Assembly (NCBI GenBank): GCA_964399735.1
Contig: CAYNSO010000003.1
Span: 51,970-115,969, forward strand
Length of the DNA stretch: 64,000 bases
DNA from: an uncultured Cytophagia bacterium
GTDB taxonomy: Bacteria > Zhuqueibacterota > Zhuqueibacteria > Residuimicrobiales > Krinioviventaceae
Direction of reading: 5' to 3'
Shown here one piece after another: positions 1-33,201 of the stretch (position 1 is the stretch's first letter; every line of letters begins with the position of its first letter). The translations under genes were made by a program, and so were the position numbers. Under the pieces are notes generated by a model, which saw nothing but the letters and a program-made list of their open reading frames with translations, made no database searches and had not been told where the DNA came from.

Positions 1-684
1 TTTGGCTGCTCCCTTGCCCAGTTTGAACTGGTTACGGATCACAGCGCGCAGGTTGGTGCGGTTATGGTGCCAGACCCGCATATCAGTCTGCCAATAGATA
101 ACATCGCCACCTGCCAGCGCCCGGCGAAAAAAACGGCTGTCGCTGCCGTTCAAATAATTATCAAATGGTCCGTATTTAGCAAAAATGGCGCGGATGAAAA
201 AAACATTCAGTGTTCCACAGGGGCCAATTTTTATGCCATTGCGCACATTCCAGGAATCGAAAAATTCTAGTAAATACTCTACCGTACCCCAGAGACTGCG
301 GGGGGTGCCGTTCATGACCGGGCCGACGATGATCTGTTTGCCGGCCTTGTAACCGTTGATGATATCATTTACCCACAACTCTCCTACCCGGCAATCGGTA
401 TCGGTGAACAAAAACAGGTCCGATTTGGCATTGTTAATTCCCAAATTTCGTCCCTCGCCCGGATGCAATCGCTTTTTGGAGTGGATGAGATTGACTTGGG
501 GAAAATCTCTACTTACCAGTTCGGCAGTATTGTCTGTGCCGCTATCAACCACAATCACCTCAAAGGCATAATCCGTTTTTTGCGCCTGCAAGGATTGTAA
601 TAAATTACCAATATATCGGGCACAGTTATACGACGGTATAATCACAGAAGCGCATATCTCTTTATTTTGTTCAGCGTTATTCAT
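1..684 (-). CDS. Glycosyltransferase family 2 (partial; C-terminus lies beyond window start)
   Basis: Hand translation of the minus strand from ATG at 682-684 gives MNNAEQNKEICASVIIPSYNCARYIGNLLQSL...VIVVDSGTDNT...FTDTDC. This is the typical GT2 N-terminal Rossmann region with a DxD-like TDTD motif. There is no stop before position 1. The ORF track shows only short antisense ORFs here. Confidence 0.6.
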   Translation of the reverse strand, partial: MNNAEQNKEICASVIIPSYNCARYIGNLLQSLQAQKTDYAFEVIVVDSGTDNTAELVSRDFPQVNLIHSKKRLHPGEGRNLGINNAKSDLFLFTDTDCRVGELWVNDIINGYKAGKQIIVGPVMNGTPRSLWGTVEYLLEFFDSWNVRNGIKIGPCGTLNVFFIRAIFAKYGPFDNYLNGSDSRFFRRALAGGDVIYWQTDMRVWHHNRTNLRAVIRNQFKLGKGAAK

Positions 685-700
685 ATCGTTACTAAATTCA

Positions 701-1852
701 TTATATTTTACCCAGCTCGGAAATTTCTGCTGCCATACCGTCCCAACTAAACTTTTTATTCAATTCTTTGATATGGCTGCGCATTGTTTCCACCATTGCG
801 GTATTTAAAGCGCCATCGATAAAAAACCGTCTTCCTGCCACGACAATTGCATCGGCATTGCCCGGCGGCGTCAGGAACCCGGTTTCGCCATCGGTTACAA
901 TTTCGGCAAAACAGCTTAGATCAGAGGCAATAACCGGTTTTTCCATAGCCAGGGCAACCTGCAAAGCCCCGCTGCCGGTTGCCGAGGTATACGGAAAAAC
1001 CGCAATATCGGCGGCTGCATACAGCCGTTCTACTTCTTCATTGACGATATATTCATTCTTGCGGATAACTATTGCTTGCAGGTTATATTCACTGATTTGT
1101 TTTTGGATAATATCTTCTTCTTCATGCCATGCTTCGCCAGTGAGCAGCAAGCGGATATTCGGAAATTCTATTGCCAGAGTTTTCATAGCCTGGAGTAGAA
1201 CCGGCACACCTTTATATTTACGGATAAAGCCGAAAAACATCAGCACCACATGATTTGGATTAAAGCCCAAACGCTTGCGTTCCTCATCTCGCTGAGCAGA
1301 ATTTGTTTTGAAAAAATTATAATTGGGGTGCGCCTTGACCCTGACATTAGCTTTGGGAACCAGGTAAAGCAACGAATCGCGAATTTCACGGGAATGCGCA
1401 ATAAAATAATCACCCATACGCAACACCAGCCGGGTACAAAATTGGCCAAAGCGGCTGGATTCATGTTCAACCACATTATGGCAAATAAAGACAATTTTGG
1501 GTGTTTTTAATATTTTAATGCCGATGCAAATCACCCAGTAAGGCAGCGTCCAGAAAGATACCCACCAGGGAATGATAACCAGCTGCGGCCGGTGTTTTTT
1601 TATGTGAAAGATAACACGAAACCACGATAACGGATTAAGCGAATCCAGTAAATAATCGACTCCCGGTTCTTCCAGTTTCACCTGGCTTTTATCTTTATCT
1701 GTTTGGCCGGGATAAAGCCACATGGGATACTGACGTTTCACCGCGCCCAGCGCCACCTGGTGTTCCTTTTTCAAGGCGCGAAATAATAATGTAGTATAAT
1801 GGGAAATCCCGCCGCGATACGGCCAGGTTGGTCCAAGCATATATATTTTCAT
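701..1852 (-). CDS. Glycosyltransferase family 4 (GT-B, group 1)
   Basis: 383 aa. N-terminal MKIYMLGPTWPYRGGISHYT and C-terminal nucleotide-sugar-binding region with the E-x7-E-like motif (VFPYTSATGSGALQVALAMEKPVIASD), typical of GT4 enzymes. Confidence 0.8.
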   Translation of the reverse strand: MKIYMLGPTWPYRGGISHYTTLLFRALKKEHQVALGAVKRQYPMWLYPGQTDKDKSQVKLEEPGVDYLLDSLNPLSWFRVIFHIKKHRPQLVIIPWWVSFWTLPYWVICIGIKILKTPKIVFICHNVVEHESSRFGQFCTRLVLRMGDYFIAHSREIRDSLLYLVPKANVRVKAHPNYNFFKTNSAQRDEERKRLGFNPNHVVLMFFGFIRKYKGVPVLLQAMKTLAIEFPNIRLLLTGEAWHEEEDIIQKQISEYNLQAIVIRKNEYIVNEEVERLYAAADIAVFPYTSATGSGALQVALAMEKPVIASDLSCFAEIVTDGETGFLTPPGNADAIVVAGRRFFIDGALNTAMVETMRSHIKELNKKFSWDGMAAEISELGKI

Positions 1853-1889
1853 ATACCACCCCTCTGCTGCAAATCACTCCCTGTCCTGC

Positions 1890-2861
1890 TCACTTATCCG
1901 CCTCATCCCTTGCACCGCCTGTTACGTTGCTTTCCATTTTACGAACCCGGTATAATACATTTTCAATCAGCTGGCGGTTGGCGCCTATTAAATCAGCCAG
2001 CAGGCCAATAATAAATATCTGAAAGCCGACAATCAGTAAAACCGCAGCCAAAATCAGGGACTGTATGTGACCGGCCCCGGATACAAATAAATAAAAATAT
2101 AAAAACCGCAGACCGATCAGAGCGCCCAGTAAAAAGATTATTCCGCCAATATAGGTAAACATTTTTAACGGTTCGTACATGGTGTAAATACGCATGATGG
2201 TACTAACGGAACGTTTGATATATTGCCAGTTACTTTTAAAAAGCCGGGATTCGCGTATTTGTTCGTTAACACGCACCGGCACATGAGTAACAACCAGGTT
2301 CTTTTTGCCGGCCTGGATAATCGTTTCCAAAGTGTAGGTAAAGCGGCTGACGACATTGATTTGCATGGCGGCATCGCGCGAAAAGGCGCGAAAACCGCTG
2401 GGGGCATCCGGTATATTTGTATCGGAAACTTGCTGCACCACCCAGCTGCCAAGATTCTGTAGCCTCTTTTTAATCCAGGAAAAATGCTCAATTTCATTAG
2501 TCTGACGGTCGCCAATAACAATATCCGCTTCCTTTTTCAAGATGGGCGTGATCAGCTTTTCAATATCACTGCCGCAATATTGATTATCGGCATCGGTATT
2601 GACAATGATATCTGCGCCCAACTGCAGGCAGGCATCAATTCCGGCGTTAAACCCCTTGGCCAAACCCTTGTTGCGGGTAAAGCTGACAATGTGCTTTACT
2701 CCCAATTCCTGCGCCACTTGTACGGTACGATCACGGCTGCCGTCATCGACAACCAATATTTCAATTTCATCAATCCCGTTTATCTTTTGCGGAAGATCAG
2801 CCAGAGTTTGAGGCAGGGCTTTTTCCTCATTATAACAGGGTATTTGAATGATCAGTTTCAT
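1890..2861 (-). CDS. GT2 polyprenyl-phosphate sugar synthase (GtrB/ArnC/DPM1-like)
   Basis: 323 aa. IQIPCYNEE...VVDDGSRDRT...NTDADNQ (DxD) followed by two C-terminal TM helices (IGGIIFLLGALIGL..., LILAAVLLIVGFQIFIIGLL). This is the architecture of bactoprenol-phosphate glycosyltransferases. Confidence 0.8.
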   Translation of the reverse strand: MKLIIQIPCYNEEKALPQTLADLPQKINGIDEIEILVVDDGSRDRTVQVAQELGVKHIVSFTRNKGLAKGFNAGIDACLQLGADIIVNTDADNQYCGSDIEKLITPILKKEADIVIGDRQTNEIEHFSWIKKRLQNLGSWVVQQVSDTNIPDAPSGFRAFSRDAAMQINVVSRFTYTLETIIQAGKKNLVVTHVPVRVNEQIRESRLFKSNWQYIKRSVSTIMRIYTMYEPLKMFTYIGGIIFLLGALIGLRFLYFYLFVSGAGHIQSLILAAVLLIVGFQIFIIGLLADLIGANRQLIENVLYRVRKMESNVTGGARDEADK

Positions 2862-2884
2862 TTGATTAATTAATCCCGAAAAGA

Positions 2885-3850
2885 TTATTCTACAATTTCT
2901 TCAATATTATATTCAGTAATTTCATTGGCATGGGTATAAATAATCATTTCTCCCAACAAGCCAATGGATATCAATTGAATGCCGATAATAAACAACATAG
3001 CGCCGAGCAGCAGCATAGGCCGTCCGGCAATTGCGCCATAACCTAAAATCCGGTAAATAAACAAATAAATATTGATCACAGCGCCAATCAAGGTAAAGAT
3101 CACACCTATAAAGCCCAAAAAATGCAGCGGCTTTTTAGAGTATTTGCTGATGAAAATGACATTGAGAAAATCCAGTAACCGTTTGATATAATTTTTAGGA
3201 TAAAGGGATTGCTCAAAATGACCCGGCAGTTGTTCAATGCTTTCCTCAGTAATTTTATAACCCTGCCGGTGGGCAAGAACCGGAATAAAGGCATTCAGTT
3301 CACCATAAAAAGGCACATGTTCAAGCAGAGACTTGCGCGTTGCCAGCACGCCGCTGTTAATATCGTGCAGTTGTAATTTGGTCATTGAACTGGTCATGCA
3401 GTTAAACGCTTTAGAGACAAGTTGATTCAACCGCGAATCACGCCGGGGCGAACGCACACCAATAACAATATCAAACCCCTCATCCAGTTTTTGTACAAAA
3501 CGCACCAAATTTTCAGGACTGACATTGACCCGGCAGGTAAAATAAATAATCTTTTCACCGGCGGCCAGTTTCATACCGGCATCCAGTGCAGCAGATTCGC
3601 CAAACATAGTGCGCAATTTGACCAGCTTGATCTTTTGAAATTGACCGGCCAGTTCCAGCATCTTGTTCCAGGTACCGTCGCTGCTGCCGTCATCGACATA
3701 AATGATCTCAAAATCAAATGCAGCGGCAGTAAAGATCTGCTGTAATTGCTGATTCAGTTCCGGCAAATAATCCTGCTGGTTCTGTGCAGTAATTATTATA
3801 GATACCAGTTTATGATCATTATTGCTTGGCATTGGTTTAATTTGCTCCAT
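2885..3850 (-). CDS. GT2 GtrB-like paralog with degenerate DxD motif (possible pseudo-enzyme)
   Basis: 321 aa with the same architecture as its neighbours (IIITAQNQ...VDDGSSDGT, two C-terminal TM helices). At the position where the paralogs carry DAD/DGD it carries FTCRVN instead. Confidence 0.7.
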   Translation of the reverse strand: MEQIKPMPSNNDHKLVSIIITAQNQQDYLPELNQQLQQIFTAAAFDFEIIYVDDGSSDGTWNKMLELAGQFQKIKLVKLRTMFGESAALDAGMKLAAGEKIIYFTCRVNVSPENLVRFVQKLDEGFDIVIGVRSPRRDSRLNQLVSKAFNCMTSSMTKLQLHDINSGVLATRKSLLEHVPFYGELNAFIPVLAHRQGYKITEESIEQLPGHFEQSLYPKNYIKRLLDFLNVIFISKYSKKPLHFLGFIGVIFTLIGAVINIYLFIYRILGYGAIAGRPMLLLGAMLFIIGIQLISIGLLGEMIIYTHANEITEYNIEEIVE

Positions 3851-3864
3851 ATCTTGTATTTACC

Positions 3865-4821
3865 TTAATATTCAAATTTTTTTCGGGAACCGGTATTCAC
3901 TACCAGTTTACCCACCAGACCATAACACATAAATAAAAAAGCAGTCGCCCAAAGTAGCAAAATAAGAGTAATTTGTATATTTAACTTGGCTGCATCAAAA
4001 TGCTGCATCAGAAAATGATACATAAAATGAACAAAAACAATAATACCGGACCAAAAACATAACGAAGCAAAGGCAGAGAAAAAGCGCAAGGGGTTATGCA
4101 AATGCTTCATCAGCAGCCGGATGGTGGTTAAATCCATAATCACGCGAAAAGTGCGGGTAAGATTATACTTGGACTTGCCAAACTCGCGCGCATGATGGGT
4201 TACCGGCATTTCCGTAATCTGCGCGCCCTGCATACGCAACAACGCCGGAATAAAACGATGCAGTTCACCATAAAGCGAGATACTGCGCAACAAATCGCCG
4301 CGAAACGCTTTGAGTGAACAGCCGGTATCGTGCAATTTTACATTCGTTACCGAGCAAATGATTCGGTTGGCAATTTTTGAAGGCACTTTGCGGACAATAA
4401 ACTTGTCCTTACGGTTCTTGCGCCAGCCACTCACCACGTCATATCCTTGTTCCAGTTTTTGCAGAATCAGCGGAATATCTGCCGGATCATTCTGCAGGTC
4501 GCCATCCATAGCAATCACATTAACGCCGCGGGTGGCTTTGAATCCTGCGGCCATGGCTGCCGACTGCCCGAAATTAGCGCGAAACAAAATGGCTTTGAGC
4601 GGTGCGTTTTCCTGCGCCAGGCGGCGCATTACATCGCGGGTGCCGTCGGCGCTGCCGTCATCAACAAAGATCACTTCATAACTCTTGCCCAACTGATCTA
4701 AAACGCCACTTAACACGCACCATACCCGTTCAACATTTTCTATTTCATTATAAAAAGGAATAACAACGGACAGGTATGGTTGCTCCGTTTGCTTTTCGTT
4801 TATTTCTTTTTCATACATCAT
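3865..4821 (-). CDS. GT2 polyprenyl-phosphate sugar synthase (GtrB/ArnC/DPM1-like)
   Basis: 318 aa. LSVVIPFYNEIENV...VDDGSADGT...AMDGDLQND (DxD), C-terminal TM helices. Confidence 0.8.
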   Translation of the reverse strand: MMYEKEINEKQTEQPYLSVVIPFYNEIENVERVWCVLSGVLDQLGKSYEVIFVDDGSADGTRDVMRRLAQENAPLKAILFRANFGQSAAMAAGFKATRGVNVIAMDGDLQNDPADIPLILQKLEQGYDVVSGWRKNRKDKFIVRKVPSKIANRIICSVTNVKLHDTGCSLKAFRGDLLRSISLYGELHRFIPALLRMQGAQITEMPVTHHAREFGKSKYNLTRTFRVIMDLTTIRLLMKHLHNPLRFFSAFASLCFWSGIIVFVHFMYHFLMQHFDAAKLNIQITLILLLWATAFLFMCYGLVGKLVVNTGSRKKFEY

Positions 4822-5407
4822 GCTTTATAAACCGTTTTTTTAGCAATAAAGCAACAATGACAACCGGCAGCAGCAGATAAATTTCCCGCACCACCGCCAT
4901 AGCATTGTGCCGGTTGAACAAGCTTTTAAAAAATCCCGCGGCATCTGCGCTCCGATGTATATCGGTGAACAAACTTGCAGGAATAATATAATACTGACTA
5001 CTCAAAGGCCAAAACAGCGGCGCACCAAACGGCGGATTGCTGTCGATTGTAACTAGATCAAACAATAAATGTAACAAGCCTGCCAGTACAAATATCAAGG
5101 CCAAAAAACGAAATTGCCGGGCATTCTTTCTGCTGCACAACCAGGCGCCGGGTAAAGCGGCCAGAACTACAAATAAAATGGTATGGGTAACTCCATGATG
5201 ATAACGATTCGGTTCGCCAACCATCAAGCCGAATAAAAAATCAATATCCGGTAATACTGCAAAAAACAGTGAGCCGATCAGAGCGATCCAGTTCAGCTTT
5301 TTACCTGTCCCCACAGTATAAACGACTAGTCCGCCTAAAGCATGTCCAATTGGTGAAGCCATAATCCTTGATTTTTTAAAAATATTACATTTATTACATG
5401 CCGCCAT
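4811..5407 (-). CDS. Small polytopic membrane protein, YdjM/DUF457-like putative membrane-bound metal-dependent hydrolase
   Basis: 198 aa. Several TM helices with conserved His/Asp clusters (PIGHALGG, LPDIDFLFG, HHGVTH). It overlaps both neighbours, indicating translational coupling. The start is uncertain: the second ATG (about 5362), preceded by AAGGA, may be the real one. Confidence 0.4.
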   Translation of the reverse strand: MAACNKCNIFKKSRIMASPIGHALGGLVVYTVGTGKKLNWIALIGSLFFAVLPDIDFLFGLMVGEPNRYHHGVTHTILFVVLAALPGAWLCSRKNARQFRFLALIFVLAGLLHLLFDLVTIDSNPPFGAPLFWPLSSQYYIIPASLFTDIHRSADAAGFFKSLFNRHNAMAVVREIYLLLPVVIVALLLKKRFIKHDV

Positions 5408-6737
5408 TCATTGAATAAAGACGGGCAGTTAATATGATATACACATTATAAAGCAACAATATGGAAATAAATACATTAAAAACAACTTTAACATGCACCG
5501 GACGGTGTAAAATTTTCAGCTTTTTTTCCGGTAATTGCGTTATGATTAAATTAATCACAAACATAAATGGCAAATACAGGGCAAGAATATGCCGTACCGA
5601 AGGTCCCAGGTAATTCCACCAGGCATTCAAACCAAAAAACACTCCAAAATAACAAAACAGGAACAGGAATAAAAACAAATGCTGTTTTAATAATTGCCAG
5701 GCTCTTACCCGGTTCATAAACAGGACGAGCAGAAAGTACAGAGTATAGAAAAAAATGAACCAGAAATAACCATACGCCTGTTTACTGGCTTTGATGGAAG
5801 TGATGCCGCCCGTCCAAACCCGGTTAAAAACCTGGGCCAGGGTATGTTCCTGGAAATACTTTTTCATACCGGGAATCTGCTCCGGGGGCATTTGTGGCCA
5901 GCCGACCCGGTCGCCATGAGCGCGGGTGCCGCTTTTCATTTGCTCGCGGGAATCGTACCACATGTAAAAAGTAGAATTAACATTATAAAAATACTTGCCG
6001 AATATCTTTTTATTGTTTTGAATATAGGGGTAAACAATTACAATAAATGTAACAAGTACCAATACAAGACTGACAAAGGGCACAAGCTGCTGTTTGAGGT
6101 TAATGGAATGAGACGTGCGATTGTGCAGACCAGTTATAAACACATAAATCTGTTTACATGTAAACCACACTGCCAGCAAACCCAAAGCCGGCATTACCGA
6201 TGCTTTGGTTAGAAAGGTGAGCCCGGTAAAAACTCCGGTAAGAATTGCATAATACCAGGTTGGCGCTGTAAACATTTTCAGAATGAGTAAAAAGGTAAGG
6301 AATGATAAAAAGAAAAATAATAACTCGCACTGAAAATAAGGCGCTTTAAAAATAAACACTGTAAATGCGGTTATAAAAAAAAGGTTTACAGCGGCATGGC
6401 GCGGGAAAAACCTGAAAAAAATCCACGCCAATGCGGCCAGTATCAATAAAGCGATTATTATATTTATCCGCTTACCCAGCACAAAATAATCATCCAGCGA
6501 CATACCCGTTTTATAAAACACCGACAGGATCAGGGGATACAAGGGGTGACGATTGCGATCGCCGGTAAAATGATAATTGGTATCGTGCAAATTGTGGGCA
6601 TAATACATATATGCGCCCTGGTCAAATTTGTTATAATCGGTATTCACCTCGCGGGCGTGCCGGTCTGCGCCATAATAAAAAATTCCAATGAACAAAGCTG
6701 CAACCAGGATAACAAGCGCAATTTTTAAATACTTCAT
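5394..6737 (-). CDS. GT-C fold membrane glycosyltransferase (ArnT/PMT, GT39/GT83-like)
   Basis: 447 aa, about 11 predicted TM helices. The first loop carries FDQGAYMYYAHN, resembling the D-E/Q-x-x-Y loop motif of the ArnT/PMT_2 family. It lies adjacent to the GtrB-like GT2 genes. Confidence 0.6.
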   Translation of the reverse strand: MKYLKIALVILVAALFIGIFYYGADRHAREVNTDYNKFDQGAYMYYAHNLHDTNYHFTGDRNRHPLYPLILSVFYKTGMSLDDYFVLGKRINIIIALLILAALAWIFFRFFPRHAAVNLFFITAFTVFIFKAPYFQCELLFFFLSFLTFLLILKMFTAPTWYYAILTGVFTGLTFLTKASVMPALGLLAVWFTCKQIYVFITGLHNRTSHSINLKQQLVPFVSLVLVLVTFIVIVYPYIQNNKKIFGKYFYNVNSTFYMWYDSREQMKSGTRAHGDRVGWPQMPPEQIPGMKKYFQEHTLAQVFNRVWTGGITSIKASKQAYGYFWFIFFYTLYFLLVLFMNRVRAWQLLKQHLFLFLFLFCYFGVFFGLNAWWNYLGPSVRHILALYLPFMFVINLIITQLPEKKLKILHRPVHVKVVFNVFISILLLYNVYIILTARLYSMNGGM

Positions 6738-6822
6738 ATCATTCTCACCTTGATCACTTTGATCATCTTGCTAAATTTTTAACACCATTTCTAAATAACC
6801 GCAAAGCGCGTCTGAACATGTT

Positions 6823-8151
6823 TTAAACTGTTGATGCGCCGTTTTCACTTTTATTCAATAACGAAACCACAAATTTAAACTTGCCGGTCTCTTCATAAGG
6901 TACTTTATCAACAACATGAATATTAATTTGCATGGTATCGCCAAGCTCCTCCAGTAACAGATTACGCAGCAATTGGTGCAAATCATCGGTAAACTGTTTA
7001 ACCGGTACAACATAAAAATCAATAACTCCCGGAACACGTTGCACAATTTGGGATAATCGTATTCCTTTGGCAAAAGTAGTAGCCTTTTGCAAACCGCCAA
7101 TATATTTGCCATATTTGTTGATGAGGCGGTCATCCATCCGTCCAATCAGGCGGTCGATCAACGGCAAGGTTCTGCCGCAGGCACACACCCGGTCGGTAGC
7201 AATCGCATAATCTTTGGTATCATAACGGATGAGTGGAAAAGCGCGGTTATGGAGTCCGGTTGAAATAATTCTTGCTTCCTCACCCGGTTTTGCCGGCGTA
7301 CCGTCATCTTTGATCAATTCGACGTGACCATACTCGGAAGCGATATGATAACCGCCATGCGGGCATTGAATGATCAAAGCCGTGTGCTCGATCAACCCGT
7401 AATTATCGCTTACCGGCGCTCCTGACCAGCTTTCCATAAACTGGCGTTGATTTTCTACCAGCGATTCCGCTACAGACACTATAAACCGGGGCTTGACATC
7501 TGTTATTCCCGCATCGTTCAAAACATGGCAGAGATGATTGAGAGCCGAAGAGTGTCCGCGCCAAAACTTTATCTTGTATTTACGCAGCAAAGCGGCGTAT
7601 TCGTGAATATTGGTTTCATCAATATATTGCGAAGAGAATTCCAGGCCGCGGCACTGCCAGTTCCAGCGATACTTGTTTGGCAGGTGCATTTTAAAATTAC
7701 GAATGTCCATAAAACCATCCCCCAGCTTGTAACCAAACCAGGAAAAATGCCGCCACTGGTGCACCAGTTCAACACTATTGATAAAATTATCCCAATAAAC
7801 TTCCAGAGGTGTGCCTGTTGTACCGCTGGTGTATACAGTTACAGGCCGGTATTTGTTAAAATTATCGGCTTTTAATTCATCCGTATGTTCCAGTACCAGT
7901 TCTTTGGAAAAGATCGGAATTTTATACAGATCAGCAAAAGAATTAAAATCTTGTCGGGCAAGGCCGTTTTCCTGGAAAAATTTGCGATAAAATGGCACGT
8001 TTGCAAAGCAATGATCCAGCATTTTGGAAAAATAAACCCATTGCAGTTGTTGCAATTTTTCAACAGAATAGTATTGGGTTTTCCACAACAACAGCCGCCA
8101 TTTTAACAGGTTGAATGGTGAAAAAAAATCTTCTAATCTGAATTCTTTCAT
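6823..8151 (-). CDS. CapK-like adenylate-forming enzyme (phenylacetate-CoA ligase / coenzyme F390 synthetase family)
   Basis: 442 aa. AMP-binding P-loop-like motif VYTSGTTGTPLEV. Size and N-terminal region are typical of CapK proteins found in capsule loci. Confidence 0.65.
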   Translation of the reverse strand: MKEFRLEDFFSPFNLLKWRLLLWKTQYYSVEKLQQLQWVYFSKMLDHCFANVPFYRKFFQENGLARQDFNSFADLYKIPIFSKELVLEHTDELKADNFNKYRPVTVYTSGTTGTPLEVYWDNFINSVELVHQWRHFSWFGYKLGDGFMDIRNFKMHLPNKYRWNWQCRGLEFSSQYIDETNIHEYAALLRKYKIKFWRGHSSALNHLCHVLNDAGITDVKPRFIVSVAESLVENQRQFMESWSGAPVSDNYGLIEHTALIIQCPHGGYHIASEYGHVELIKDDGTPAKPGEEARIISTGLHNRAFPLIRYDTKDYAIATDRVCACGRTLPLIDRLIGRMDDRLINKYGKYIGGLQKATTFAKGIRLSQIVQRVPGVIDFYVVPVKQFTDDLHQLLRNLLLEELGDTMQINIHVVDKVPYEETGKFKFVVSLLNKSENGASTV

Positions 8152-8185
8152 TTACCACATCTTTAAATTTCAAGATACAAATTAA

Positions 8186-9628: not shown

Positions 9629-9630
9629 TC

Positions 9631-25688: not shown

Positions 25689-25703
25689 AAACAAGCCTCA
25701 ATA

Positions 25704-26924
25704 TTAATTCTGATAACCTTGCAGGGCCATATCCAAAATTTTACCTGTTTTATCAAGATAATTCTGATAGCTGTATTGACGTTCAGCGAGTTGGCGGGCA
25801 GCTTGCACCATTCCGGTTCGCCGCGATTCATCTTGCAAAATTGCAATAATTCCGGCGGCAAAATCTTCCGGCTCGGCGCGAGTCAGCACAGCGACTGAAT
25901 CATCCAATATCTGTGTATGAGTAATATGGCGTGTTGCAACAATCGGTTTTCCTGAACGCAAATAAGAATATATTTTTAGCGGTGAATTATTGCCCTTTAA
26001 ACGGGGCGATACCAGTACATCTGCCAGTTGTACAAACGCCGGGATTATTTGAGGTTGCACAAAACCGGTAAAAATCATATTTTCGCCGAATCCAGTCTTG
26101 AACGCCATGTTACGGTAAAACTGTTGCTGCGCTTCATTACCACCCACCAATACAAAACGCACGGCATCACCATATTTTTTAATGACCGGAACGGCGCTCT
26201 GTACCAACAGGTCAATGCCCTGATATGGCTCAAAAGTGCCATAGTATAAAATTACCGTTTTCCCGGCTAGCCCATATTCAGTTTGCAGGCGCTGCAATGC
26301 GTTTTCATCGGGGGGAAAAACCAAACTGTTATCTGCAACATTTTCAATAAGCAGGCTTTTTTTATTCGGAAAATTCTCTTCCACATAATGTTGCAACTCC
26401 GGGCAAATAGTAATGACTGCACTGGCGCTTTTAATGGTATATTGTTCCAAACGATCAAACAATTTTAAAAATGGTTTAAACCCGGTAAACTTGAAATTAG
26501 TCAATTGCTGCGGCAGGCTGGAATGCATGTCATACAAATGCGGGATGTTGTAGCGTTTGGCTAAAAATGCACCCCAAAAGCTGGCTTCCTCATGAGTATG
26601 AATAATGTCGTATTTATTTTTCCGTAATAATTTTATGGTTAGAATAATAAGAAATAAATCCAGAAAAATTTTGGTTTTTGAAGGCCCCACTTTAACTTTA
26701 CGAACAAAAGGGATACGGGCAGACCGATAGATTGTAACACCATCAATAAGCACATTTTGACCGACCGGATAGGTAACCAAATCTACCTGGTGCCCAAGTA
26801 AAGACAGGGCTTTCATACGATGTAAAACACTAAAAGGAGTGCCGCGGGGCTGAAACCAGGGTTGAGGCGCCAGCATTAAAATCCGTAATTTTTTCATATC
26901 TCCGGGTTCATTCCTTCCAGTCAC
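25704..26924 (-). CDS. Glycosyltransferase family 4
   Basis: 406 aa. GT-B fold with typical C-terminal donor-binding region (PRLKGNNSPLKIYSYLRSGKPIVAT). Confidence 0.8.
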   Translation of the reverse strand: MTGRNEPGDMKKLRILMLAPQPWFQPRGTPFSVLHRMKALSLLGHQVDLVTYPVGQNVLIDGVTIYRSARIPFVRKVKVGPSKTKIFLDLFLIILTIKLLRKNKYDIIHTHEEASFWGAFLAKRYNIPHLYDMHSSLPQQLTNFKFTGFKPFLKLFDRLEQYTIKSASAVITICPELQHYVEENFPNKKSLLIENVADNSLVFPPDENALQRLQTEYGLAGKTVILYYGTFEPYQGIDLLVQSAVPVIKKYGDAVRFVLVGGNEAQQQFYRNMAFKTGFGENMIFTGFVQPQIIPAFVQLADVLVSPRLKGNNSPLKIYSYLRSGKPIVATRHITHTQILDDSVAVLTRAEPEDFAAGIIAILQDESRRTGMVQAARQLAERQYSYQNYLDKTGKILDMALQGYQN

Positions 26925-26954: not shown

Positions 26955-28412
26955 CTACTCGGCTCCATATCCTGTTATCACGACAAAAAATGTTTTCATC
27001 ATGATCCGCCAATCCAGCATTAAAGACCAGTTATCAATATATTCCAAATCCATTTTCATCCACTGATCAAAAGACAGCTTGTTCCTACCACTAACCTGCC
27101 AAATGCAGGTAATGCCAGGCTTTAAAGATAAGCGCCGGCGCTGCCAGATTTTATAATTTTCCACTTCACTGACTATTGGCGGCCGCGGCCCGACAATACT
27201 CATATCGCCTTTTAAAACATTAAATAATTGCGGTAATTCATCAATGCTGGTTTTGCGAATAAATGAACCGACTTTGGTTATGCGCGGGTCTTTTTTAATT
27301 TTAAAGACCGGTCCGTCCATTTCATTATCCTCCTGCAACTCTGCTTTCATCTCTTCGGCATTATTTACCATAGAGCGAAATTTATAAAGAATGAACTTGC
27401 GGCCCTTTAAGCCGCAACGCACCTGTTTGAACAAAATTGGCCCTTTGGAGGTAACTTTGATCGCAATCGCGGTTATCAGCATAATTGGAGAAAGCACAAT
27501 TAATGATAATGCGGATATAAGAATATCTAGTAATCGTTTGATAAAAAGCTGCCATTCGCGGGCATGAAAAGTTTTAAATTCCAGCAGCGGAAAACCGTTA
27601 AAGTCCGTTTGCCGGGTATGCGCCAAAGTTAAATTGTAAAAATCCAGCGAAAGAGCTGTAGTAATGCCCACCTCTTCACAGGCCAGAATAGCTTCTTCAA
27701 TCAAGGGCAGCCAATGCCGGGGAACAACAAAGATAACCTGGTCTATAACTATCTGGTTGATAATAAAGGGAATATCTTTGATGCGGCCCATCACCCGGTA
27801 ACCGGCAATTTTTTTGCCATACAGGGCATGGTCGTCGTCAATCAGACCGACAATTTTCAAGCCCCAGTTGCCATGGTTGTGCACAGCATCAATAAATTCC
27901 AAAGCTCTTTTGCCGGTTCCAACAATTAACAGATTCTCCTGGTTTAATCCCTTGGAATGAACATTATCCAAAATTTTTAAAAGCGCCCACTTTTCCAGCA
28001 AGATTAATAAATACGCGGTAGCAGCATAAACAACAAAGAACAAACGGCTGGTCATTTGTAGTTTAGCTAAAAAGACAAAGTTACCGGAGGCAAGCGTTGC
28101 CCATAACCCGGAAACAATAATAAGCCAGACTAATTTCCGAAAAGGTCTGGTACGGTAACCCTCATATATTCCATAAATGGAAAATATAACTACCCAAATC
28201 AGTGGAAAGCCCCCAAACAACATCCAGAAATTGCTGGCAAAATTTACAAATCCGGAAAAAGTAGCGCTGGTAGCATAGGCTTTAATATTTAACTGGGCTA
28301 CCTGGCGAATAAATTCATCAAGAAAATAGGCAATAGGAAAAACAACAAGAAGCACAAAAAAATCAATGCCTTTTAAAATATTACCTAAAAACTTTTCTCG
28401 TTCAGATACCAT
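26955..28412 (-). CDS. Polyprenyl-phosphate glycosyl-1-phosphate transferase (WbaP/WcaJ-like initiating sugar transferase)
   Basis: 485 aa. N-terminal TM helices, central Rossmann-like region, and the C-terminal bacterial sugar transferase domain with conserved PGITCIWQVSGRN and DLEYIDNWSL. Confidence 0.85.
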   Translation of the reverse strand: MVSEREKFLGNILKGIDFFVLLVVFPIAYFLDEFIRQVAQLNIKAYATSATFSGFVNFASNFWMLFGGFPLIWVVIFSIYGIYEGYRTRPFRKLVWLIIVSGLWATLASGNFVFLAKLQMTSRLFFVVYAATAYLLILLEKWALLKILDNVHSKGLNQENLLIVGTGKRALEFIDAVHNHGNWGLKIVGLIDDDHALYGKKIAGYRVMGRIKDIPFIINQIVIDQVIFVVPRHWLPLIEEAILACEEVGITTALSLDFYNLTLAHTRQTDFNGFPLLEFKTFHAREWQLFIKRLLDILISALSLIVLSPIMLITAIAIKVTSKGPILFKQVRCGLKGRKFILYKFRSMVNNAEEMKAELQEDNEMDGPVFKIKKDPRITKVGSFIRKTSIDELPQLFNVLKGDMSIVGPRPPIVSEVENYKIWQRRRLSLKPGITCIWQVSGRNKLSFDQWMKMDLEYIDNWSLMLDWRIMMKTFFVVITGYGAE

Positions 28413-28433
28413 AAAATATTACAAAACTTTCTG

Positions 28434-29390
28434 TCAAACAGAATTCTTGTTATTGAACCACTGTATAAATTTATCAATACCGGCTTCAATGGCAACTTGC
28501 GGATTATAATTCAAATCCTGCTTTGCCCGGCTGATATCGGCAAATGTAATTGGCACATCACCAGGTTGATCCGGCTTCCAGTCAATAATGGCTTTTTTCC
28601 CCAAACCTTTTTGTATCAAATCAATCAGATACATTAATTCAACCGTATTCGATTCACCAAGGTTATAGATATGGTAACCGTCGCAATGCAAAATTGCTGC
28701 TTGTATCCCCTGTAATATATCATCTATAAAAGTATAGTCACGCCGGCTTTTACCGTTGCCAAAAACCGGAATGGGTTTACCATTGTCAATTAAATTGGCA
28801 AATTTATGAATAGCCATATCCGGTCTCTGCCGTGGACCATAGACAGTAAAAAAACGCAGGCAATTAACAGAAATCTTGTAAAGTTTATGATAGGTGTAAC
28901 AAACCAATTCGCCGGCTTTTTTAGTGGCAGCATAAGGCGAAATGGGGTTATCAACAGAATCACTCTCGCTGAATGGCACTTTATCATTGGCGCCATATAC
29001 GGAAGATGAAGAAGCAAACACAAACCCGGATACATCATGTTCCCTGCACATTTCCAGCAAATGCATGGTACCCTGCACGTTCACTCTTTCATACAATAAT
29101 GGTTCCTGGATTGAAGGCCTTACACCGGCGCGGGCAGCCAGGTGAACAATAACGTCGAATTTATGCGCGGAAAAAATCTTTTGCAGCAACGGCAGGTCAA
29201 GAATATCGCCTTCAATCAGTTGGTAATTTTTATGCGCCAACAGTTCTTTGATATTGTTTCTTTTTATAGCCGGATCATAATAGTTGTTAAAATTATCCAG
29301 GCACACAACATCATCCCCCTGTTTTACCAATCTTTCACTCAAATGTGAGCCAATAAAACCGGCGCCCCCGGTGACCAATAACTTCATCAT
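28434..29390 (-). CDS. NDP-sugar 4-epimerase (GalE/UDP-glucuronate-epimerase-like SDR)
   Basis: 318 aa. LVTGGAGFIGSHL; catalytic YAATK. Confidence 0.8.
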   Translation of the reverse strand: MMKLLVTGGAGFIGSHLSERLVKQGDDVVCLDNFNNYYDPAIKRNNIKELLAHKNYQLIEGDILDLPLLQKIFSAHKFDVIVHLAARAGVRPSIQEPLLYERVNVQGTMHLLEMCREHDVSGFVFASSSSVYGANDKVPFSESDSVDNPISPYAATKKAGELVCYTYHKLYKISVNCLRFFTVYGPRQRPDMAIHKFANLIDNGKPIPVFGNGKSRRDYTFIDDILQGIQAAILHCDGYHIYNLGESNTVELMYLIDLIQKGLGKKAIIDWKPDQPGDVPITFADISRAKQDLNYNPQVAIEAGIDKFIQWFNNKNSV

Positions 29391-29413
29391 CTACCCTTAA
29401 TAAAGATCAAACC

Positions 29414-31732
29414 CTAATAATGATAATAACTATATGTATTATTCAAGATGGCCGTTTCCGAACCGTTCAATATTACACCAATAAGATTTACATTTACATT
29501 GCTAAACAACTCTAATTTTTCCTGGGCAATCTTTCTATCCGTTTGCCCGGCTTTAACAACCACGGCAACGGCATCCATCTGAGTACCAATTACCACACAA
29601 TCAGTCGCCGCTTCAAGGGGGGGAGCATCGAAGAGGATAAAATCAAATTTTCGGCGCGCTTCATCAAGAAAATGACGCATTTGCTGCGAGCCCAATAATT
29701 CCGAAGGATTGGGGATCATCGATCCGCAGCTGATAATCGACAAATTGGGAATATGAGTCTGCTGTACCACACTGGACAATGTTACCCGGTTATTTAAATA
29801 ATTTGTAAAACCCGGCTCCTTTTTCATCCCAAAAGTGTTATGCAACACACCGCGGCGTAAATCGGCATCGACCAGCAGGGTATTGGTTCGCTGTTGAGCA
29901 AGAATAATAGCCAGGTTGCTGGCGGTAAACGATTTGCCCTCTTCCGGGCTGATACTGGTAAGCAGCAACGTGTGAATTCGCCCGGTATTTTTTGAAAACA
30001 TTAAATGAGTGCGCAAAGCGCGGTACGATTCCCCTATGGGTGTGGGTGAATAATCATGTGTGACCAATTGTCGGTCTATTTGCTTGGCTTTTTCAAAATC
30101 CTGATATTCTTTGATATTGCCAAATTTTACTATTGGTATTGCGCCCAAAACCGGCAAATTCAAAAGTCTTTCAACATCGTTAAATGACCGGATCTTGTTA
30201 TCAGAAATTTCCAAAAGCAGGGCAATAACAACACCTAAAATTAAACCCAAACCTCCGCCCAGTAAAACCCGCGACATTTTGCTGGGGTTAATTGGCGAAG
30301 TTGGTGTTATGGCCCGATCAAGAATAGCAATTTCATTTTCTTCAACTACATCGGCCAGTTCCATTTTTTGCATTTCCTGCAGTAACAGAAAATACTTGTC
30401 CTCGGCAATTTTCTTCTTCCGTTCCAGTTCCATAAAGCGATACTGATCCTGTGGCAGTAAATTTAGCTGTGTTTGAATACCAGATAAATCCGTGCGATAT
30501 TCCGATTCGCGTCTTGCCAGGGTATTACGAAAACTGGAAGCAAAATTGGTGATCTCTTTGTGAGTTGTGCGAATATTATTCATTACCTCCAACAATTCCG
30601 GATGATCGGGCGAGAATTGTTGATAGAGCATGTCGTATTGCTTGTTCAAAGCCTGCAATTGCTGCTTGAGGATTGCCATTTTAGTTTCATTAACAAACAT
30701 CGGGTTATTGGCAATTTCTGTAACAATAAAACTGCGGTATTGATCGGGGTCAGGCTCGGAATCGGCTTTATCCAGCCGATCCAGGTATTCGGTCAGTTGA
30801 TTCCTTTGCCGCGGTAAATCCCGAAGCGCTTTATCATAATCGGTAAGCCGATCCAGCAATCTTTTCTTTTCGCCGTCCAGACTAAGCGGATAGCGTGAAT
30901 AAAAACTACGCAGTTCAGCCTCAACAGCGTTCACTTTAACTTCTGCAGTTTTTAATTGTTTGGAAATAATATCCCTTTTTAAATCTACATCTCGGGTTTT
31001 TAAATTCATACTTTGGTCGACATATACTTCGGCAATTCGGTTCAACTTTTTCGGCAAGAGTTCAGGGTCGGTACCGTTCATTTGCAGGATCATATACGAA
31101 CCGCCGCCAAAGAAATCTACACTCAAATCTCTGGATATAGCGTCTGCGGCTTTATCAATTGATACAACTTTGAATTTGATCTCTTTGGGAAACTCGACAG
31201 CGTGGGGTTGTAGTTGGAAAGTAATGCCATTCCCGCTGCGTTCGCTGGCAACTGCGTCCCATACATTGGCGCTATCGAGCACTGTTCCACCGGTGCTATC
31301 CATAAAAACAAAATAATAATTTCCGGCTTCGTCAATTGAAACTTTGTATTTACCAATAACCGGGCTTTCGCTGGTATAATAGCTAAAAAATATTTCATCA
31401 GCGCTTTTCATTGTGGTATCCTGAAGCACAATTGCCAGCCCTAACTGGGCAGTAACCCGGTTAATAAATGTGCGGCTGCGAATTTCACCCTTGCGCTCAT
31501 TGTTCCAGAATTGGCCGGCGTCCTGATCGATCGATCTTATTTTCAAATTTACATAAGCCCGGTAAATGGGCACCTGGTTTCTGGCTTTTAAATAAAAAGG
31601 CACTGCTACCAATATCATACATACCAGTATCAGATATTTTCTTTTCCAAATGCCTTTAATATACTTTTGGAAATCAATTTGAGAAACATTTGCTGGTTCT
31701 GCAGGTATATGTAGATTGTCTAATTCTTCCAT
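29414..31732 (-). CDS. Polysaccharide co-polymerase / tyrosine autokinase (Wzc / BY-kinase-like)
   Basis: 772 aa. N-terminal TM, long coiled-coil periplasmic region, second TM, cytoplasmic P-loop ATPase (Walker A SPEEGKSFTASNLA), and a C-terminal tyrosine cluster (NNTYSYYHY). Confidence 0.8.
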   Translation of the reverse strand: MEELDNLHIPAEPANVSQIDFQKYIKGIWKRKYLILVCMILVAVPFYLKARNQVPIYRAYVNLKIRSIDQDAGQFWNNERKGEIRSRTFINRVTAQLGLAIVLQDTTMKSADEIFFSYYTSESPVIGKYKVSIDEAGNYYFVFMDSTGGTVLDSANVWDAVASERSGNGITFQLQPHAVEFPKEIKFKVVSIDKAADAISRDLSVDFFGGGSYMILQMNGTDPELLPKKLNRIAEVYVDQSMNLKTRDVDLKRDIISKQLKTAEVKVNAVEAELRSFYSRYPLSLDGEKKRLLDRLTDYDKALRDLPRQRNQLTEYLDRLDKADSEPDPDQYRSFIVTEIANNPMFVNETKMAILKQQLQALNKQYDMLYQQFSPDHPELLEVMNNIRTTHKEITNFASSFRNTLARRESEYRTDLSGIQTQLNLLPQDQYRFMELERKKKIAEDKYFLLLQEMQKMELADVVEENEIAILDRAITPTSPINPSKMSRVLLGGGLGLILGVVIALLLEISDNKIRSFNDVERLLNLPVLGAIPIVKFGNIKEYQDFEKAKQIDRQLVTHDYSPTPIGESYRALRTHLMFSKNTGRIHTLLLTSISPEEGKSFTASNLAIILAQQRTNTLLVDADLRRGVLHNTFGMKKEPGFTNYLNNRVTLSSVVQQTHIPNLSIISCGSMIPNPSELLGSQQMRHFLDEARRKFDFILFDAPPLEAATDCVVIGTQMDAVAVVVKAGQTDRKIAQEKLELFSNVNVNLIGVILNGSETAILNNTYSYYHY

Positions 31733-31749
31733 AATTTTCTTTTTTCACA

Positions 31750-32463
31750 TTATTGTTTCAACAGTGTTAAATATAAAATGATTAACGACATTCCAAACTG
31801 GAAATATCGCATCATACTTCTAAAAGTTGGCCGATTGGCACGCGGCACCACCAGTTCATCGCCTGATACAAAACCTAATTCATAAAGTGAAGTGCCCTGC
31901 TGAATTGCCTCAATAAAATCTTTATAAATAATTTCATCTTTGCGCATAATAAACATATCATTCAAAGCCGAAAGTGCATCCAATCCACCGACCAGCCCGC
32001 CGGCCTCTCTGATCATATCCCAAAAAGACATATCCAGACTTACTCGATACATTCCAGGTTGACCAAAATCACCACGCAGCGTGATACGAATTAATGGCTT
32101 GACAATGACCATAGGTTCACGGGCATAGGGTTTAAACTGTTCTGTTAATAATAACCGGACTTCTTCTGTAGTCATTCCGGCAACATGGATACTTCCCAAA
32201 GTTAAAAGATCAACCTGCCCGAAGCCGTTGATTGTAAATGCTTTGTCATGGAAATTTGCTACAAACTTTCCTTCAACCGGTGCAAAGCCACCATCATAGA
32301 CATATAAATGAATAGCATCACCGGGACCAACAATTATTTCACCCAGCCGGTCATCCTGGGAATAAACGCTGCCAGATAATAAAAGATGCAGCAATAATAG
32401 TAATATTCCAGCAATTGACAGTTGCTTCACGATAAACCTCTTGTTTAACCTGTTCTTTTCCAA
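31750..32463 (-). CDS. Polysaccharide export protein (Wza-like, Poly_export/SLBB)
   Basis: 237 aa. Signal peptide and IIVGPGDAIHLYVYDG, resembling the PGDxLxIxV motif of Wza-family exporters. Shorter than E. coli Wza. Confidence 0.6.
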   Translation of the reverse strand: MEKNRLNKRFIVKQLSIAGILLLLLHLLLSGSVYSQDDRLGEIIVGPGDAIHLYVYDGGFAPVEGKFVANFHDKAFTINGFGQVDLLTLGSIHVAGMTTEEVRLLLTEQFKPYAREPMVIVKPLIRITLRGDFGQPGMYRVSLDMSFWDMIREAGGLVGGLDALSALNDMFIMRKDEIIYKDFIEAIQQGTSLYELGFVSGDELVVPRANRPTFRSMMRYFQFGMSLIILYLTLLKQ

Positions 32464-32478
32464 ACTTTTTTCCTGCCC

Positions 32479-33201
32479 TTAGCGTGAACGGTAAAAGCGA
32501 TACCGCTTGGCTTTGGTTTCCATATTCATTTTCTTTAATGTTGCTCTGAGCTTGAAATAGCCGATTCTGGTAAAACCAAACCGCTGCGATTTCAACTCTT
32601 TGCGAATATTCATAACTCCCCCCATAGGATTTTCGATAACTATTTTTTTAATTTTTTCAGTAACAGGTAAATCAGCTTCTTCAACAGTCAGTTTTCGTTT
32701 GGCAAACGAGGCGGACTTGGCCGCAGCGCCTTTATCTTGACGGCGCGCTGCTATTGCGTCAATTTCGTCTTGTCCGGGCGCTAAATCGCTTTCCTGTATT
32801 TCCAATAATGATCCGTTTTGGGGGGTTGTAAATTTTAAACCACGGCAATAATCAAAATCGTCTATTGCTTCTTCCAGGGAATCATAGCTGGTAAGAATGC
32901 GGTTAAATTCAAGCATTTCAAACACTTCGTACACATCAGGGGTCATTTGGGTAATTTTTAAATCACCACCTTTTTCACGCAGACCACGAATTTCACCCAC
33001 AAAGATACCCCAGCCCGCGCTGCTGACATAATGCACGCCACCCAGATCTATGATAAACTGGTTGTTTCCCTGATTGATTTGCTCTGCAATTGTTTTTTGC
33101 AAATCAGATGAAGTTGTTGTGTCAATATAGCCGCTCACACGTAATAAAATAATATCTTTTAACGCGCCTATTTTATATATACTTTTTTCAATACCTTCCA
33201 T
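32479..33201 (-). CDS. STAS-domain (anti-sigma-factor-antagonist-like) protein with a basic C-terminal extension
   Basis: 240 aa. The N-terminal roughly 115 aa form a SpoIIAA-like STAS fold with the conserved Ser region (GGVHYVSSAGWGIF). The C-terminal roughly 120 aa are charged and Lys/Arg-rich with no recognised domain. Confidence 0.6.
   Translation of the reverse strand: MEGIEKSIYKIGALKDIILLRVSGYIDTTTSSDLQKTIAEQINQGNNQFIIDLGGVHYVSSAGWGIFVGEIRGLREKGGDLKITQMTPDVYEVFEMLEFNRILTSYDSLEEAIDDFDYCRGLKFTTPQNGSLLEIQESDLAPGQDEIDAIAARRQDKGAAAKSASFAKRKLTVEEADLPVTEKIKKIVIENPMGGVMNIRKELKSQRFGFTRIGYFKLRATLKKMNMETKAKRYRFYRSR

Follow-up and report, generated by a model that had tools for sequence, protein, structure and literature searches.

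A glycan gene cluster of an uncultured Zhuqueibacterota bacterium extends past the analysed window to Wzx and Wzy_C genes and carries candidate polyprenyl-phosphate-sugar modules

The DNA analysed here (the window) is a 64,000-nucleotide stretch of contig CAYNSO010000003.1 (positions 51,970 to 115,969 of the forward strand; assembly GCA_964399735.1) from an uncultured bacterium of the Zhuqueibacterota, and its positions 1-33201 carry a polysaccharide gene cluster. An earlier interpretation made without database searches (the sequence-only reading) had taken these 33 kb for a complete locus that has the initiation and export genes of a Wzx/Wzy-dependent pathway but lacks both the Wzx flippase and the Wzy polymerase. 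We scanned all non-overlapping minus-strand open reading frames (ORFs) of at least 100 aa in window 1-43 kb against Pfam, and many of them also against NCBIfam. Six frames of the whole 64 kb were searched for polytopic ORFs, defined as those of at least 250 aa with at least six transmembrane (TM) segments. The cluster genes are closely spaced on the minus strand, to which all window coordinates below refer unless stated otherwise, and intergenic distances range from -158 to 590 nt, which agrees with the long minus-strand gene runs described before. An Rfam scan of the whole window matched only a tRNA at 44739-44810 on the plus strand.

The head of the cluster encodes a STAS-domain protein that is a possible regulator (32479-33201; Pfam STAS E 2.4e-19), a short Wza-like outer-membrane polysaccharide export (OPX) protein of 237 aa with an N-terminal hydrophobic segment (31750-32463; Poly_export 39.7 bits vs a cut-off of 28) and a Wzc-type polysaccharide co-polymerase and BY tyrosine autokinase (29414-31732; GNVR, Wzz and AAA_31; TIGR01007 176.6 bits vs a cut-off of 108). 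These are followed by a nucleotide-sugar enzyme of the short-chain dehydrogenase/reductase (SDR) type, similar to GalE and GDP-mannose dehydratase (28434-29390; GDP_Man_Dehyd 1.4e-65, Epimerase 9.5e-63), and by the initiator, a WbaP/WcaJ-type polyprenyl-phosphate hexose-1-phosphate transferase (PHPT; 26955-28412; Bac_transf E 3.8e-71; TIGR03025 426 bits vs 295.6). Wzc contains the Walker A motif EEGKS and ends in the tyrosine cluster ...NNTYSYYHY. The initiator, Wza and Wzc with its tyrosine cluster, as recognized by the sequence-only reading, were all confirmed above the cut-offs of TIGR03025, Poly_export and TIGR01007. With only 237 aa and one Poly_export domain, the Wza homologue is probably without the outer-membrane helix found at the C-terminus of E. 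coli Wza and might depend on a beta-barrel protein encoded separately; a gene for an OMP_b-brl protein lies at 35970-37136. To the right of position 33201, in the part scanned to ~43 kb, lie genes for glycogen synthase, a TPR protein, an outer-membrane protein, Lgt, RodA, PBP2, MreD, MreC and a metallophosphoesterase. We sought wzx and wzy in this flank and found none; its plus-strand ORFs were unprofiled, but none has six or more TM segments.

Only six polytopic ORFs were found in the 64 kb, namely a GT-C-fold glycosyltransferase of 447 aa (GT-C447), two proteins of the PF03706 (UPF0104; LPG_synthase_TM) family, WbaP, Lgt and RodA. The Pfam scans to 43 kb and the six-frame TM scan therefore indicate that neither Wzx nor Wzy is encoded within the window, and to this extent the reported absence was correct.

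However, the cluster does not end where the window does. A glycosyltransferase family 2 (GT2) gene leaves the window at position 1, where only its 5' part is present (bases 1-680, the N-terminal 226 residues by translation); the full 303-aa GT2 is encoded in L001. We read the extension from the near-identical Logan contigs L001 and L002 and then from L010. Over window 1-11852, identity is 99.6% for L001 and 99.9% for L002, and in contigs of this identity the same-strand cluster runs at least 19 kb further. Therefore, the locus is cut by the window, and the assumption of a complete 33-kb unit was wrong. Past the edge, L001/L002 encode on the same strand a GT2 (303 aa), a glycosyltransferase family 4 enzyme (GT4; 433 aa), YdjC, a PMT_2 GT-C enzyme (625 aa), Wzx (500 aa), a further GT4, a further GT2 and a PMT GT-C enzyme (550 aa). 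The Wzx is a MOP flippase (L001 16179-17681, equal to L010 6632-8134; 4.3-5.8 kb beyond position 1; Polysacc_synt_3 E 3.1e-83) that scored above the curated NCBIfam cut-off (NF007773, 'MOP flippase family protein'; 282.2 bits vs 273). L010 adds a third GT-C enzyme of the extension (PMT_2, 591 aa), a GT2 (316 aa), a 329-aa polytopic protein, an acyl carrier protein (ACP)-like ORF, an FkbH-domain protein (TIGR01686 279 bits vs a cut-off of 147), a glyoxalase, a carbohydrate esterase family 4 (CE4) protein, a GNAT, a Wzy_C protein and a DUF2304 protein, with CE4 and GNAT on the opposite strand. The Wzy_C protein has 466 aa and ~10 TM segments (L010 20008-21408; 17.7-19.1 kb beyond position 1; Wzy_C 65 bits vs a gathering score of 31.7). 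The order PMT_2-then-Wzx (Polysacc_synt) is kept in the JGI contig L003, in which the GT-C orthologue is 85% identical, and contigs L005/L012 of a KSB1 metagenome-assembled genome (MAG) and L013-L015 are syntenic over the portion of the cluster that lies in the window. The apparent absence of Wzx and Wzy is thus a window-boundary artefact, because a Wzx gene and a gene for a Wzy_C protein, the putative polymerase, sit in the cluster past the left edge. Further along the extension, at L010 14422-17406 (12.1-15.1 kb left of the window start), the GT2 gene is followed by those for the 329-aa polytopic protein, the 97-aa ACP-like ORF with a DSLG motif and the FkbH protein; this gene set may point to a substituent, glyceryl or acyl, that is delivered by ACP.

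Next to these backbone genes, the window encodes four GT2 enzymes related to polyprenyl-phosphate-sugar synthases. Three of them are ArnC/GtrB/PgfS-like enzymes in tandem (3865-4821, 2885-3850 and 1890-2861), each with a Glycos_transf_2 domain and two C-terminal TM helices; they matched the ArnC model (180.7 and 134.3 bits) or the AglJ model (130 bits) over their full length, below the equivalog cut-offs. The fourth is an AglJ/DPM1-like enzyme, a candidate polyprenyl-phosphate-sugar synthase, encoded directly upstream of the first PF03706 protein (10897-11874; Glycos_transf_2 1.3e-29; sub-cut-off scores of 112 bits with AglJ and 101 bits with DPhHxTase), with three to four overlapping C-terminal hydrophobic segments called at residues 223-287. 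Hydrophobic segments past residue ~220 are thus present in all four (two in three of them), and the 316-aa GT2 of L010, with two such segments past residue 250, is a fifth enzyme of this kind. Because the four window enzymes and that of L010 gave full-length matches to ArnC, PgfS, AglJ, PpgS and DPM models and carry C-terminal hydrophobic segments, they can be classed as GtrB-like and are candidate polyprenyl-phosphate-sugar synthases; the earlier count of four, three in tandem, holds. Membership of the ArnC, AglJ and PgfS equivalogs was rejected, since every score fell below its cut-off.

GT-C447 (5394-6737; ~11 TM segments) had no Pfam or NCBIfam match of its own and was assigned from its homologues and predicted fold. 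Among the 401 homologues with E <= 1e-3, some carry PF13231 (PMT_2) or PF02366 or are named GT39/ArnT-like. The AlphaFold model, built from a 32-sequence alignment, reached pLDDT 88, and the top 27 Foldseek matches were all GT-C, with weak E-values; a profile search of the family against PDB sequences returned nothing useful. The homologues and the predicted fold identify GT-C447 as the one GT-C enzyme of the window, as claimed before. Its candidacy as Wzy was rejected on the same grounds. Distant homologues in L007 and L009 stand alone among unrelated genes, indicating that the GT-C447 family does not always occur in this context.

The two PF03706 proteins have ~8 TM segments each. PF03706 no. 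1 (344 aa; 9631-10665) scored 114.7 bits with LPG_synthase_TM (E 7.4e-33) and 69.5 bits with TIGR00374; PF03706 no. 2 (352 aa; 17056-18114), a stand-alone homologue of the MprF flippase domain, scored 133.8 bits (E 1.1e-38) and 86.6 bits, against a gathering score of 33.4 and a cut-off of 43.2, respectively. The G-x-D-x-x-R motif described by the sequence-only reading is present in both, as GGDAIR in no. 1 and GIDLLR in no. 2, and the orthologues of no. 1 show GGD..R with little or no variation. Family and motif were therefore borne out, whereas the standing of the motif as an MprF signature was unconfirmed, a profile search of the family against PDB sequences having returned nothing useful. 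Only the TM domain is present, and the scores with the bifunctional MprF model (NF033480 bifunc_MprF) were 10.7 and 14.4 bits vs 600. The 329-aa protein of L010 shows weak colinear similarity to no. 2 (E 0.008 pairwise) and has PGK..R and GLGVxEG motifs.

GtrA (PF04138) was found neither in the minus-strand ORFs of at least 100 aa in window 1-43 kb nor in the scanned extension genes, ORFs below 100 aa and antisense ORFs being unprofiled, and ArnE/F gave no matches, ArnE/F-type small ORFs not having been specifically screened. Because no GtrA was found among the scanned ORFs, the PF03706 proteins are, as we infer, the best candidate flippases for polyprenyl-phosphate-monosaccharides. This idea is not new. 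Makarova, Galperin and Koonin (2015; AglD/arCOG00899; PMC5898192) already identified UPF0104 and the C-terminal domain of AglD as MprF-type flippases, and they described two conserved contexts, an AglD-like GT2 with a PMT/STT3-like GT-C enzyme and a polysaccharide deacetylase with a glycosyltransferase; both contexts occur in the window. In addition, HexSDF of C. difficile (PMC10128005) and GpgSDF of P. aeruginosa (PMC12713373) are experimentally studied synthase-deacetylase-'flippase' operons with a stand-alone PF03706 protein.

We compared the neighbourhoods of PF03706 no. 1 in 21 loci from GTDB genomes. Full synteny was confined to the KSB1-like group, and the most conserved neighbours were the CapK/PaaK-like adenylate-forming ligase (6823-8151 in the window) and the amine-oxidase/PRK07208-like FAD protein (AmOx; 8186-9628), both assigned by Pfam and NCBIfam. 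The trio of CapK-like ligase, PF03706 and AmOx is complete at 33-43% identity in L016, L019 and L021-L026, and its hosts are MAGs labelled Deltaproteobacteria or Syntrophales together with unclassified bacterial MAGs. The short or end-cut contigs L018 and L020, one of them the Aerophobus contig, hold AmOx as the only trio member. As a guess, the trio could couple ATP-dependent lipid or sugar amidation to flipping. Its neighbours in L019 are a TM+TPR protein and a Kdo transferase. Orthologues of PF03706 no. 1 often adjoin large polytopic proteins, a number of which are PMT_2-like or carry TPRs. The KSB1 MAG contig L005 (GCA_016934825.1) has an extra pair of PF03706 and DUF6798 (a 571-aa membrane protein) genes at 7242-9979, between CapK and GT-C447, which looks like the modular gain of another PF03706/polytopic-protein pair.

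For PF03706 no. 2, a metagenome search with a shallow alignment found no relatives, and a second alignment succeeded, yielding 80 metagenome loci with flanks of +/-8 kb; neighbours within two genes were counted for 72 of them. A hexapeptide transferase occurred in 15/72, a large polytopic protein in 12/72, an SDR in 9/72, a GT4 in 6/72 and a CE4 in 4/72. We tested ten large polytopic proteins, most of them within two genes of PF03706 and the one in L034 seven genes away. Eight matched GT-C-clan Pfam families (PMT_2, PMT, TMEM260-like, DUF2079), two of these (L053 and, marginally, L081) at or below the gathering score, and the other two were MFS transporters. With 8/10 matching the GT-C clan, PF03706 and GT-C enzymes are genuinely associated; the link to GtrB-like GT2 enzymes is looser.

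The remaining window genes include many probable tailoring functions, assigned by Pfam and NCBIfam matches unless only Pfam is named. Downstream of the initiator lie a GT4 (25704-26924), an S-adenosylmethionine methyltransferase (24950-25861), a GlpD-like FAD dehydrogenase (23268-24953), an HpnA-like SDR (22240-23262) and a hexapeptide acyltransferase (21478-22230). The longest-ORF calls of the methyltransferase, which has a TTG start, and of the upstream GT4 overlap by 158 nt, and the true methyltransferase start is probably further downstream. A block of GT4 (20280-21437), GFO/IDH/MocA oxidoreductase (19121-20149) and SDR (18120-19109) genes is syntenic in L012-L015. Beyond PF03706 no. 2 follow a membrane-anchored GH5/GH-A-clan-like glycoside hydrolase of 539 aa with a C-terminal beta-rich domain and no Pfam match (15146-16765), a CE4 polysaccharide deacetylase (14090-15055; Pfam; N-terminal region PgaB/IcaB-like, below the NCBIfam cut-off), a second hexapeptide acyltransferase (13629-14093; Pfam) and a FemAB-like GNAT (12465-13604; Pfam). 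The largest gap of the cluster is the 590-bp non-coding interval 11875-12464, which is probably an internal promoter region. L001 and L002 both stop in it, at about window position 12015, which may reflect a repeat, a difference between strains or a break in coverage. This was the only gap inspected for small flippases, and it held short ORFs with no obvious multi-TM candidate. A YdjM-family inner-membrane protein, a putative metal-dependent hydrolase (4811-5407; Pfam YdjM 4.9e-21), is encoded directly upstream of the tandem ArnC-like GT2 genes in the window and in L034, L037, L041, L060 and L097. A further GT4 (701-1852; Pfam) lies between the tandem genes and the truncated GT2.

Much of this gene set recurs elsewhere. 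The order [GT4]-methyltransferase-GlpD-like-SDR-hexapeptide-(GT4-CE4)-PF03706-GNAT-YdjM-GT2 with TM helices (two to three copies) was found in the unrelated metagenome contigs L034, L035, L037, L041, L060, L066, L071, L073 and L097, and it corresponds to window ~2-26 kb. The methyltransferase, the GlpD-like dehydrogenase, the HpnA-like SDR and the first hexapeptide acyltransferase are all members, and in the window the cassette is accompanied by the CapK ligase, the PRK07208-like FAD protein and GT-C447. A compact version in L008, a MAG contig, comprises GlpD-like, methyltransferase, SDR, PF03706, methyltransferase, GT-C, GT2, CapK, FAD protein and hexapeptide transferase genes, with identities to the window of 39% for GT-C, 56% for GT2 and 52% for the FAD protein. 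The cassette product could be polyprenyl-phosphate-sugars tailored by Arn-like logic, or a separate glycolipid. As a gene set, the recurrent cassette is a modestly new point.

In this relative of candidate division KSB1, window 1-33201 is likely to form the two-thirds nearest the promoter of a glycan supercluster that spans at least 52 kb, with GtrABC/Arn-style modules superimposed on a conventional Wzx/Wzy backbone. The identities of the genes, the GT-C fold, the continuation of the locus and the presence of Wzx and Wzy_C are established, whereas all substrates, the function of PF03706 as a flippase and the acceptor of the GT-C enzymes are put forward here as predictions. The WbaP-type transferase would start the repeat unit on undecaprenyl phosphate, and soluble GT4 and GT2 enzymes would lengthen it. 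The MOP-family Wzx, 4.3 kb beyond the left edge, would then flip the repeat unit, the Wzy_C-family protein, 17.7 kb beyond the edge, would most likely polymerize it, and Wzc and Wza would export the polymer. Meanwhile, at least five ArnC/GtrB-like membrane GT2 enzymes would make polyprenyl-phosphate-monosaccharides, and the redox, acyl, methyl and deacetylase enzymes would probably tailor these lipid-linked sugars. The two, possibly three, stand-alone PF03706 proteins, as the best candidates, would flip them, and at least four GT-C enzymes would use the flipped sugars on the periplasmic face, decorating the polymer or another acceptor. The periplasmic glycosylation from polyprenyl-phosphate-monosaccharides that the sequence-only reading had proposed is consistent with the GtrB/ArnC-like GT2 and GT-C enzymes. 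Its proposal for the PF03706 proteins survives in part: with no GtrA found, and with PF03706 often near GT-C-clan proteins, they may act in place of GtrA, but not in place of Wzx.

Several points weigh against the supercluster model. The Wzy_C family (PF04932) also spans WaaL-type ligases and IctB-like proteins, and the sole NCBIfam match of the 466-aa protein is a weak one to IctB. Its gene lies beyond the strand switch, so that it is putative as the polymerase of this polymer. The extension was taken from other assemblies of near-identical strains and not from the contig of the window itself. The supercluster may also merge two or more independent pathways, in which case Wzx would serve a glycan other than that of WbaP, Wzc and Wza. 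As for the modules, distant orthologues of PF03706 no. 1 keep CapK and AmOx, and not a GtrB-like GT2, as neighbours, and among the no. 2 homologues only 2/72 loci have a GtrB-like GT2 at a distance of up to two genes; the co-occurrence with GtrB-like GT2 that had been suggested for checking is thus a loose one, whereas an association with GT-C was found.

Three other explanations were weighed against this evidence. The replacement of Wzx and Wzy, in which UPF0104/PF03706 flips the lipid-linked repeat unit and GT-C or another non-canonical protein polymerizes it, was the proposal of the sequence-only reading, and the lack of Wzx and Wzy in the 64-kb window together with two PF03706 proteins and a GT-C enzyme speaks for it. 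That reading had stated beforehand that wzx/wzy genes flanking the locus would overturn it, and the cluster does encode, shortly past the window edge, a MOP flippase that passes its curated cut-off as well as a Wzy_C protein. The PMT_2-then-Wzx arrangement is kept in the 85% relative L003. Moreover, PF03706 homologues are known or predicted to act on monoglycosyl or aminoacyl lipids and not on pyrophosphate-linked oligosaccharides (PMC5898192, PMC12713373, PMC10128005). We therefore regard the proposal as refuted and its truth as extremely improbable. It is less far-fetched, though still unlikely, that window ~2-26 kb is a self-contained, widespread cassette that merely lies beside exopolysaccharide (EPS) genes and makes a distinct envelope glycoconjugate. 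The product could, for instance, be a GpgSDF/HexSDF-type amino-glycolipid to which the FemAB-like GNAT or the CapK ligase adds a further acyl group; PF03706 would then flip a diacylglycerol-, phosphatidylglycerol- or other lipid-based glycolipid and not a polyprenyl-phosphate-sugar. A FemAB-like GNAT beside PF03706 recalls the pairing of synthase and flippase in MprF. The cassette recurs in unrelated metagenome contigs with no Wzc, WbaP, Wzx or Wzy_C match within +/-8 kb, the only Wza match falling in L075, outside the nine cassette contigs; it has the compact version in L008; and in MAGs labelled Syntrophales or other Deltaproteobacteria the CapK-PF03706-AmOx trio persists where no GtrB-like GT2 matched over its full length, the Aerophobus contig being too short to judge. 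The combination of GT4, CE4 and PF03706 also mirrors GpgSDF and HexSDF (PMC12713373, PMC10128005). However, the GT4 at 20280-21437 is not a GpgS orthologue (NF053787 56.2 bits vs a cut-off of 480), the deacetylase is a PgaB/IcaB-like CE4, and flanks of +/-8 kb are too short to exclude nearby export genes. The cassette itself also encodes ArnC-like candidate polyprenyl-phosphate-sugar synthases, joined by a GT-C enzyme in the window, L008 and L034; this points to polyprenyl-phosphate donors.

A different doubt concerns the PF03706 proteins themselves, which might instead serve as scaffolds, bind the acceptor lipid as subunits of GT-C or GT2 enzymes, or transport a different substrate, with polyprenyl-phosphate-sugars flipped by an unrecognized protein or by housekeeping flippases encoded elsewhere. 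In H. volcanii, the Wzx-like AglR, and not the C-terminal domain of AglD, is reportedly the proposed flippase for dolichyl phosphate mannose, which favours this explanation. So does the point, which equally weakens the supercluster model, that biochemical flippase activity has been demonstrated for no stand-alone PF03706 protein, GpgF and HexF included (PMC12713373, PMC10128005), and hexF and gpgF mutants still make their glycolipid. Against it stand the homology to the MprF translocation domain, the repeated adjacency to GT-C and lipid-sugar enzymes, and the want of a known alternative in the locus, with no GtrA among the scanned ORFs and ArnE/F-type small proteins not specifically screened. 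We judged it improbable, more so than the self-contained cassette.

The supercluster model can be set beside known systems. As in EPS loci of the group-1-capsule/colanic-acid type (WcaJ/WbaP, WzxC, Wzy, Wzc, Wza), the cluster has an initiator of the PHPT type that passes TIGR03025, a BY-kinase Wzc whose C-terminus bears a tyrosine cluster, a Poly_export OPX protein, a MOP flippase that passes NF007773 (WzxC-type), a protein with Wzy_C and many GT4 and GT2 enzymes. It differs in being much larger (at least 52 kb), in having Wzx and Wzy_C far downstream of the initiator, in its Wza of only 237 aa and in the interleaved genes for at least five candidate polyprenyl-phosphate-sugar synthases, at least four GT-C enzymes and two to three PF03706 proteins. 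GT2 enzymes with two C-terminal TM helices together with GT-C enzymes recall the three-component systems (GtrA/GtrB/GtrC; ArnC/ArnD/ArnE-F/ArnT; CsbB/GtcA/YfhO; PgfS/PgfM), and a CE4 deacetylase is present here as ArnD is in the Arn pathway. Unlike in those systems, PF03706 occupies the place of GtrA (no PF04138 in the scanned ORFs, ArnE/F-type small proteins not specifically screened), and no ArnC, PgfS or AglJ model reached its equivalog cut-off. The best ArnC score was 180.7 bits vs 529, ArnA and ArnB had no matches, and GT-C447 resembles ArnT only at the level of the predicted fold; the cluster is thus not an Arn pathway for 4-amino-4-deoxy-L-arabinose (L-Ara4N) modification of lipid A.

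The GT2 at 10897-11874 followed by the PF03706 gene at 9631-10665 reproduces the domain order of the archaeal AglD fusion (arCOG00899; PMC5898192). The genes here are bacterial, separate and embedded in a Wzx/Wzy EPS cluster, and the CapK-like ligase and PRK07208-like FAD protein with which PF03706 no. 1 is most tightly conserved are not mentioned in the passages of PMC5898192 that treat this family. GpgSDF (PMC12713373) and HexSDF (PMC10128005) likewise combine a glycosyltransferase (a GT4 in GpgS), a deacetylase and a stand-alone PF03706 'flippase', and the window counterparts are the GT4 at 20280-21437, the CE4 at 14090-15055 and the PF03706 protein at 17056-18114. However, the genes here are non-orthologous, with five others interleaved, and do not form an adjacent three-gene operon. 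Only the PF03706 component matches the triad; the CE4 scored below its cut-off, and orthology of the GT4 to the GpgS/GlcNAc-PG synthase was rejected on its NF053787 score.

Taken as a whole, this is probably a Wzx/Wzy-type locus of essentially the conventional kind, though unusually large, to which modules for glycosylating side chains have been added; it is a large new example of a known pathway. The main lesson is methodological, in that the apparent absence of Wzx and Wzy reflected where the window was cut and not the biology. For KSB1-like bacteria, the result is a very large, well-conserved glycan supercluster that encodes two to three PF03706 proteins alongside at least five candidate polyprenyl-phosphate-sugar synthases and at least four GT-C enzymes. 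The recurrent cassette and the conserved CapK-PF03706-FAD-protein trio are concrete gene sets for heterologous expression and lipidomics, and the locus offers a natural bacterial system for examining the prediction, now a decade old, that lipid-linked sugars are flipped by MprF-type domains that stand alone. A bolder proposal, which we hold only tentatively and think rather doubtful, is that window ~2-26 kb is a widespread envelope-glycoconjugate cassette whose PF03706 proteins are dedicated flippases for the tailored polyprenyl-phosphate-monosaccharides (or aminoglycolipids) used by GT-C. If this is true, PF03706 would join GtrA and ArnE/F as a third bacterial solution to flipping, and the many members of this 'flippase-like' family would gain a function.

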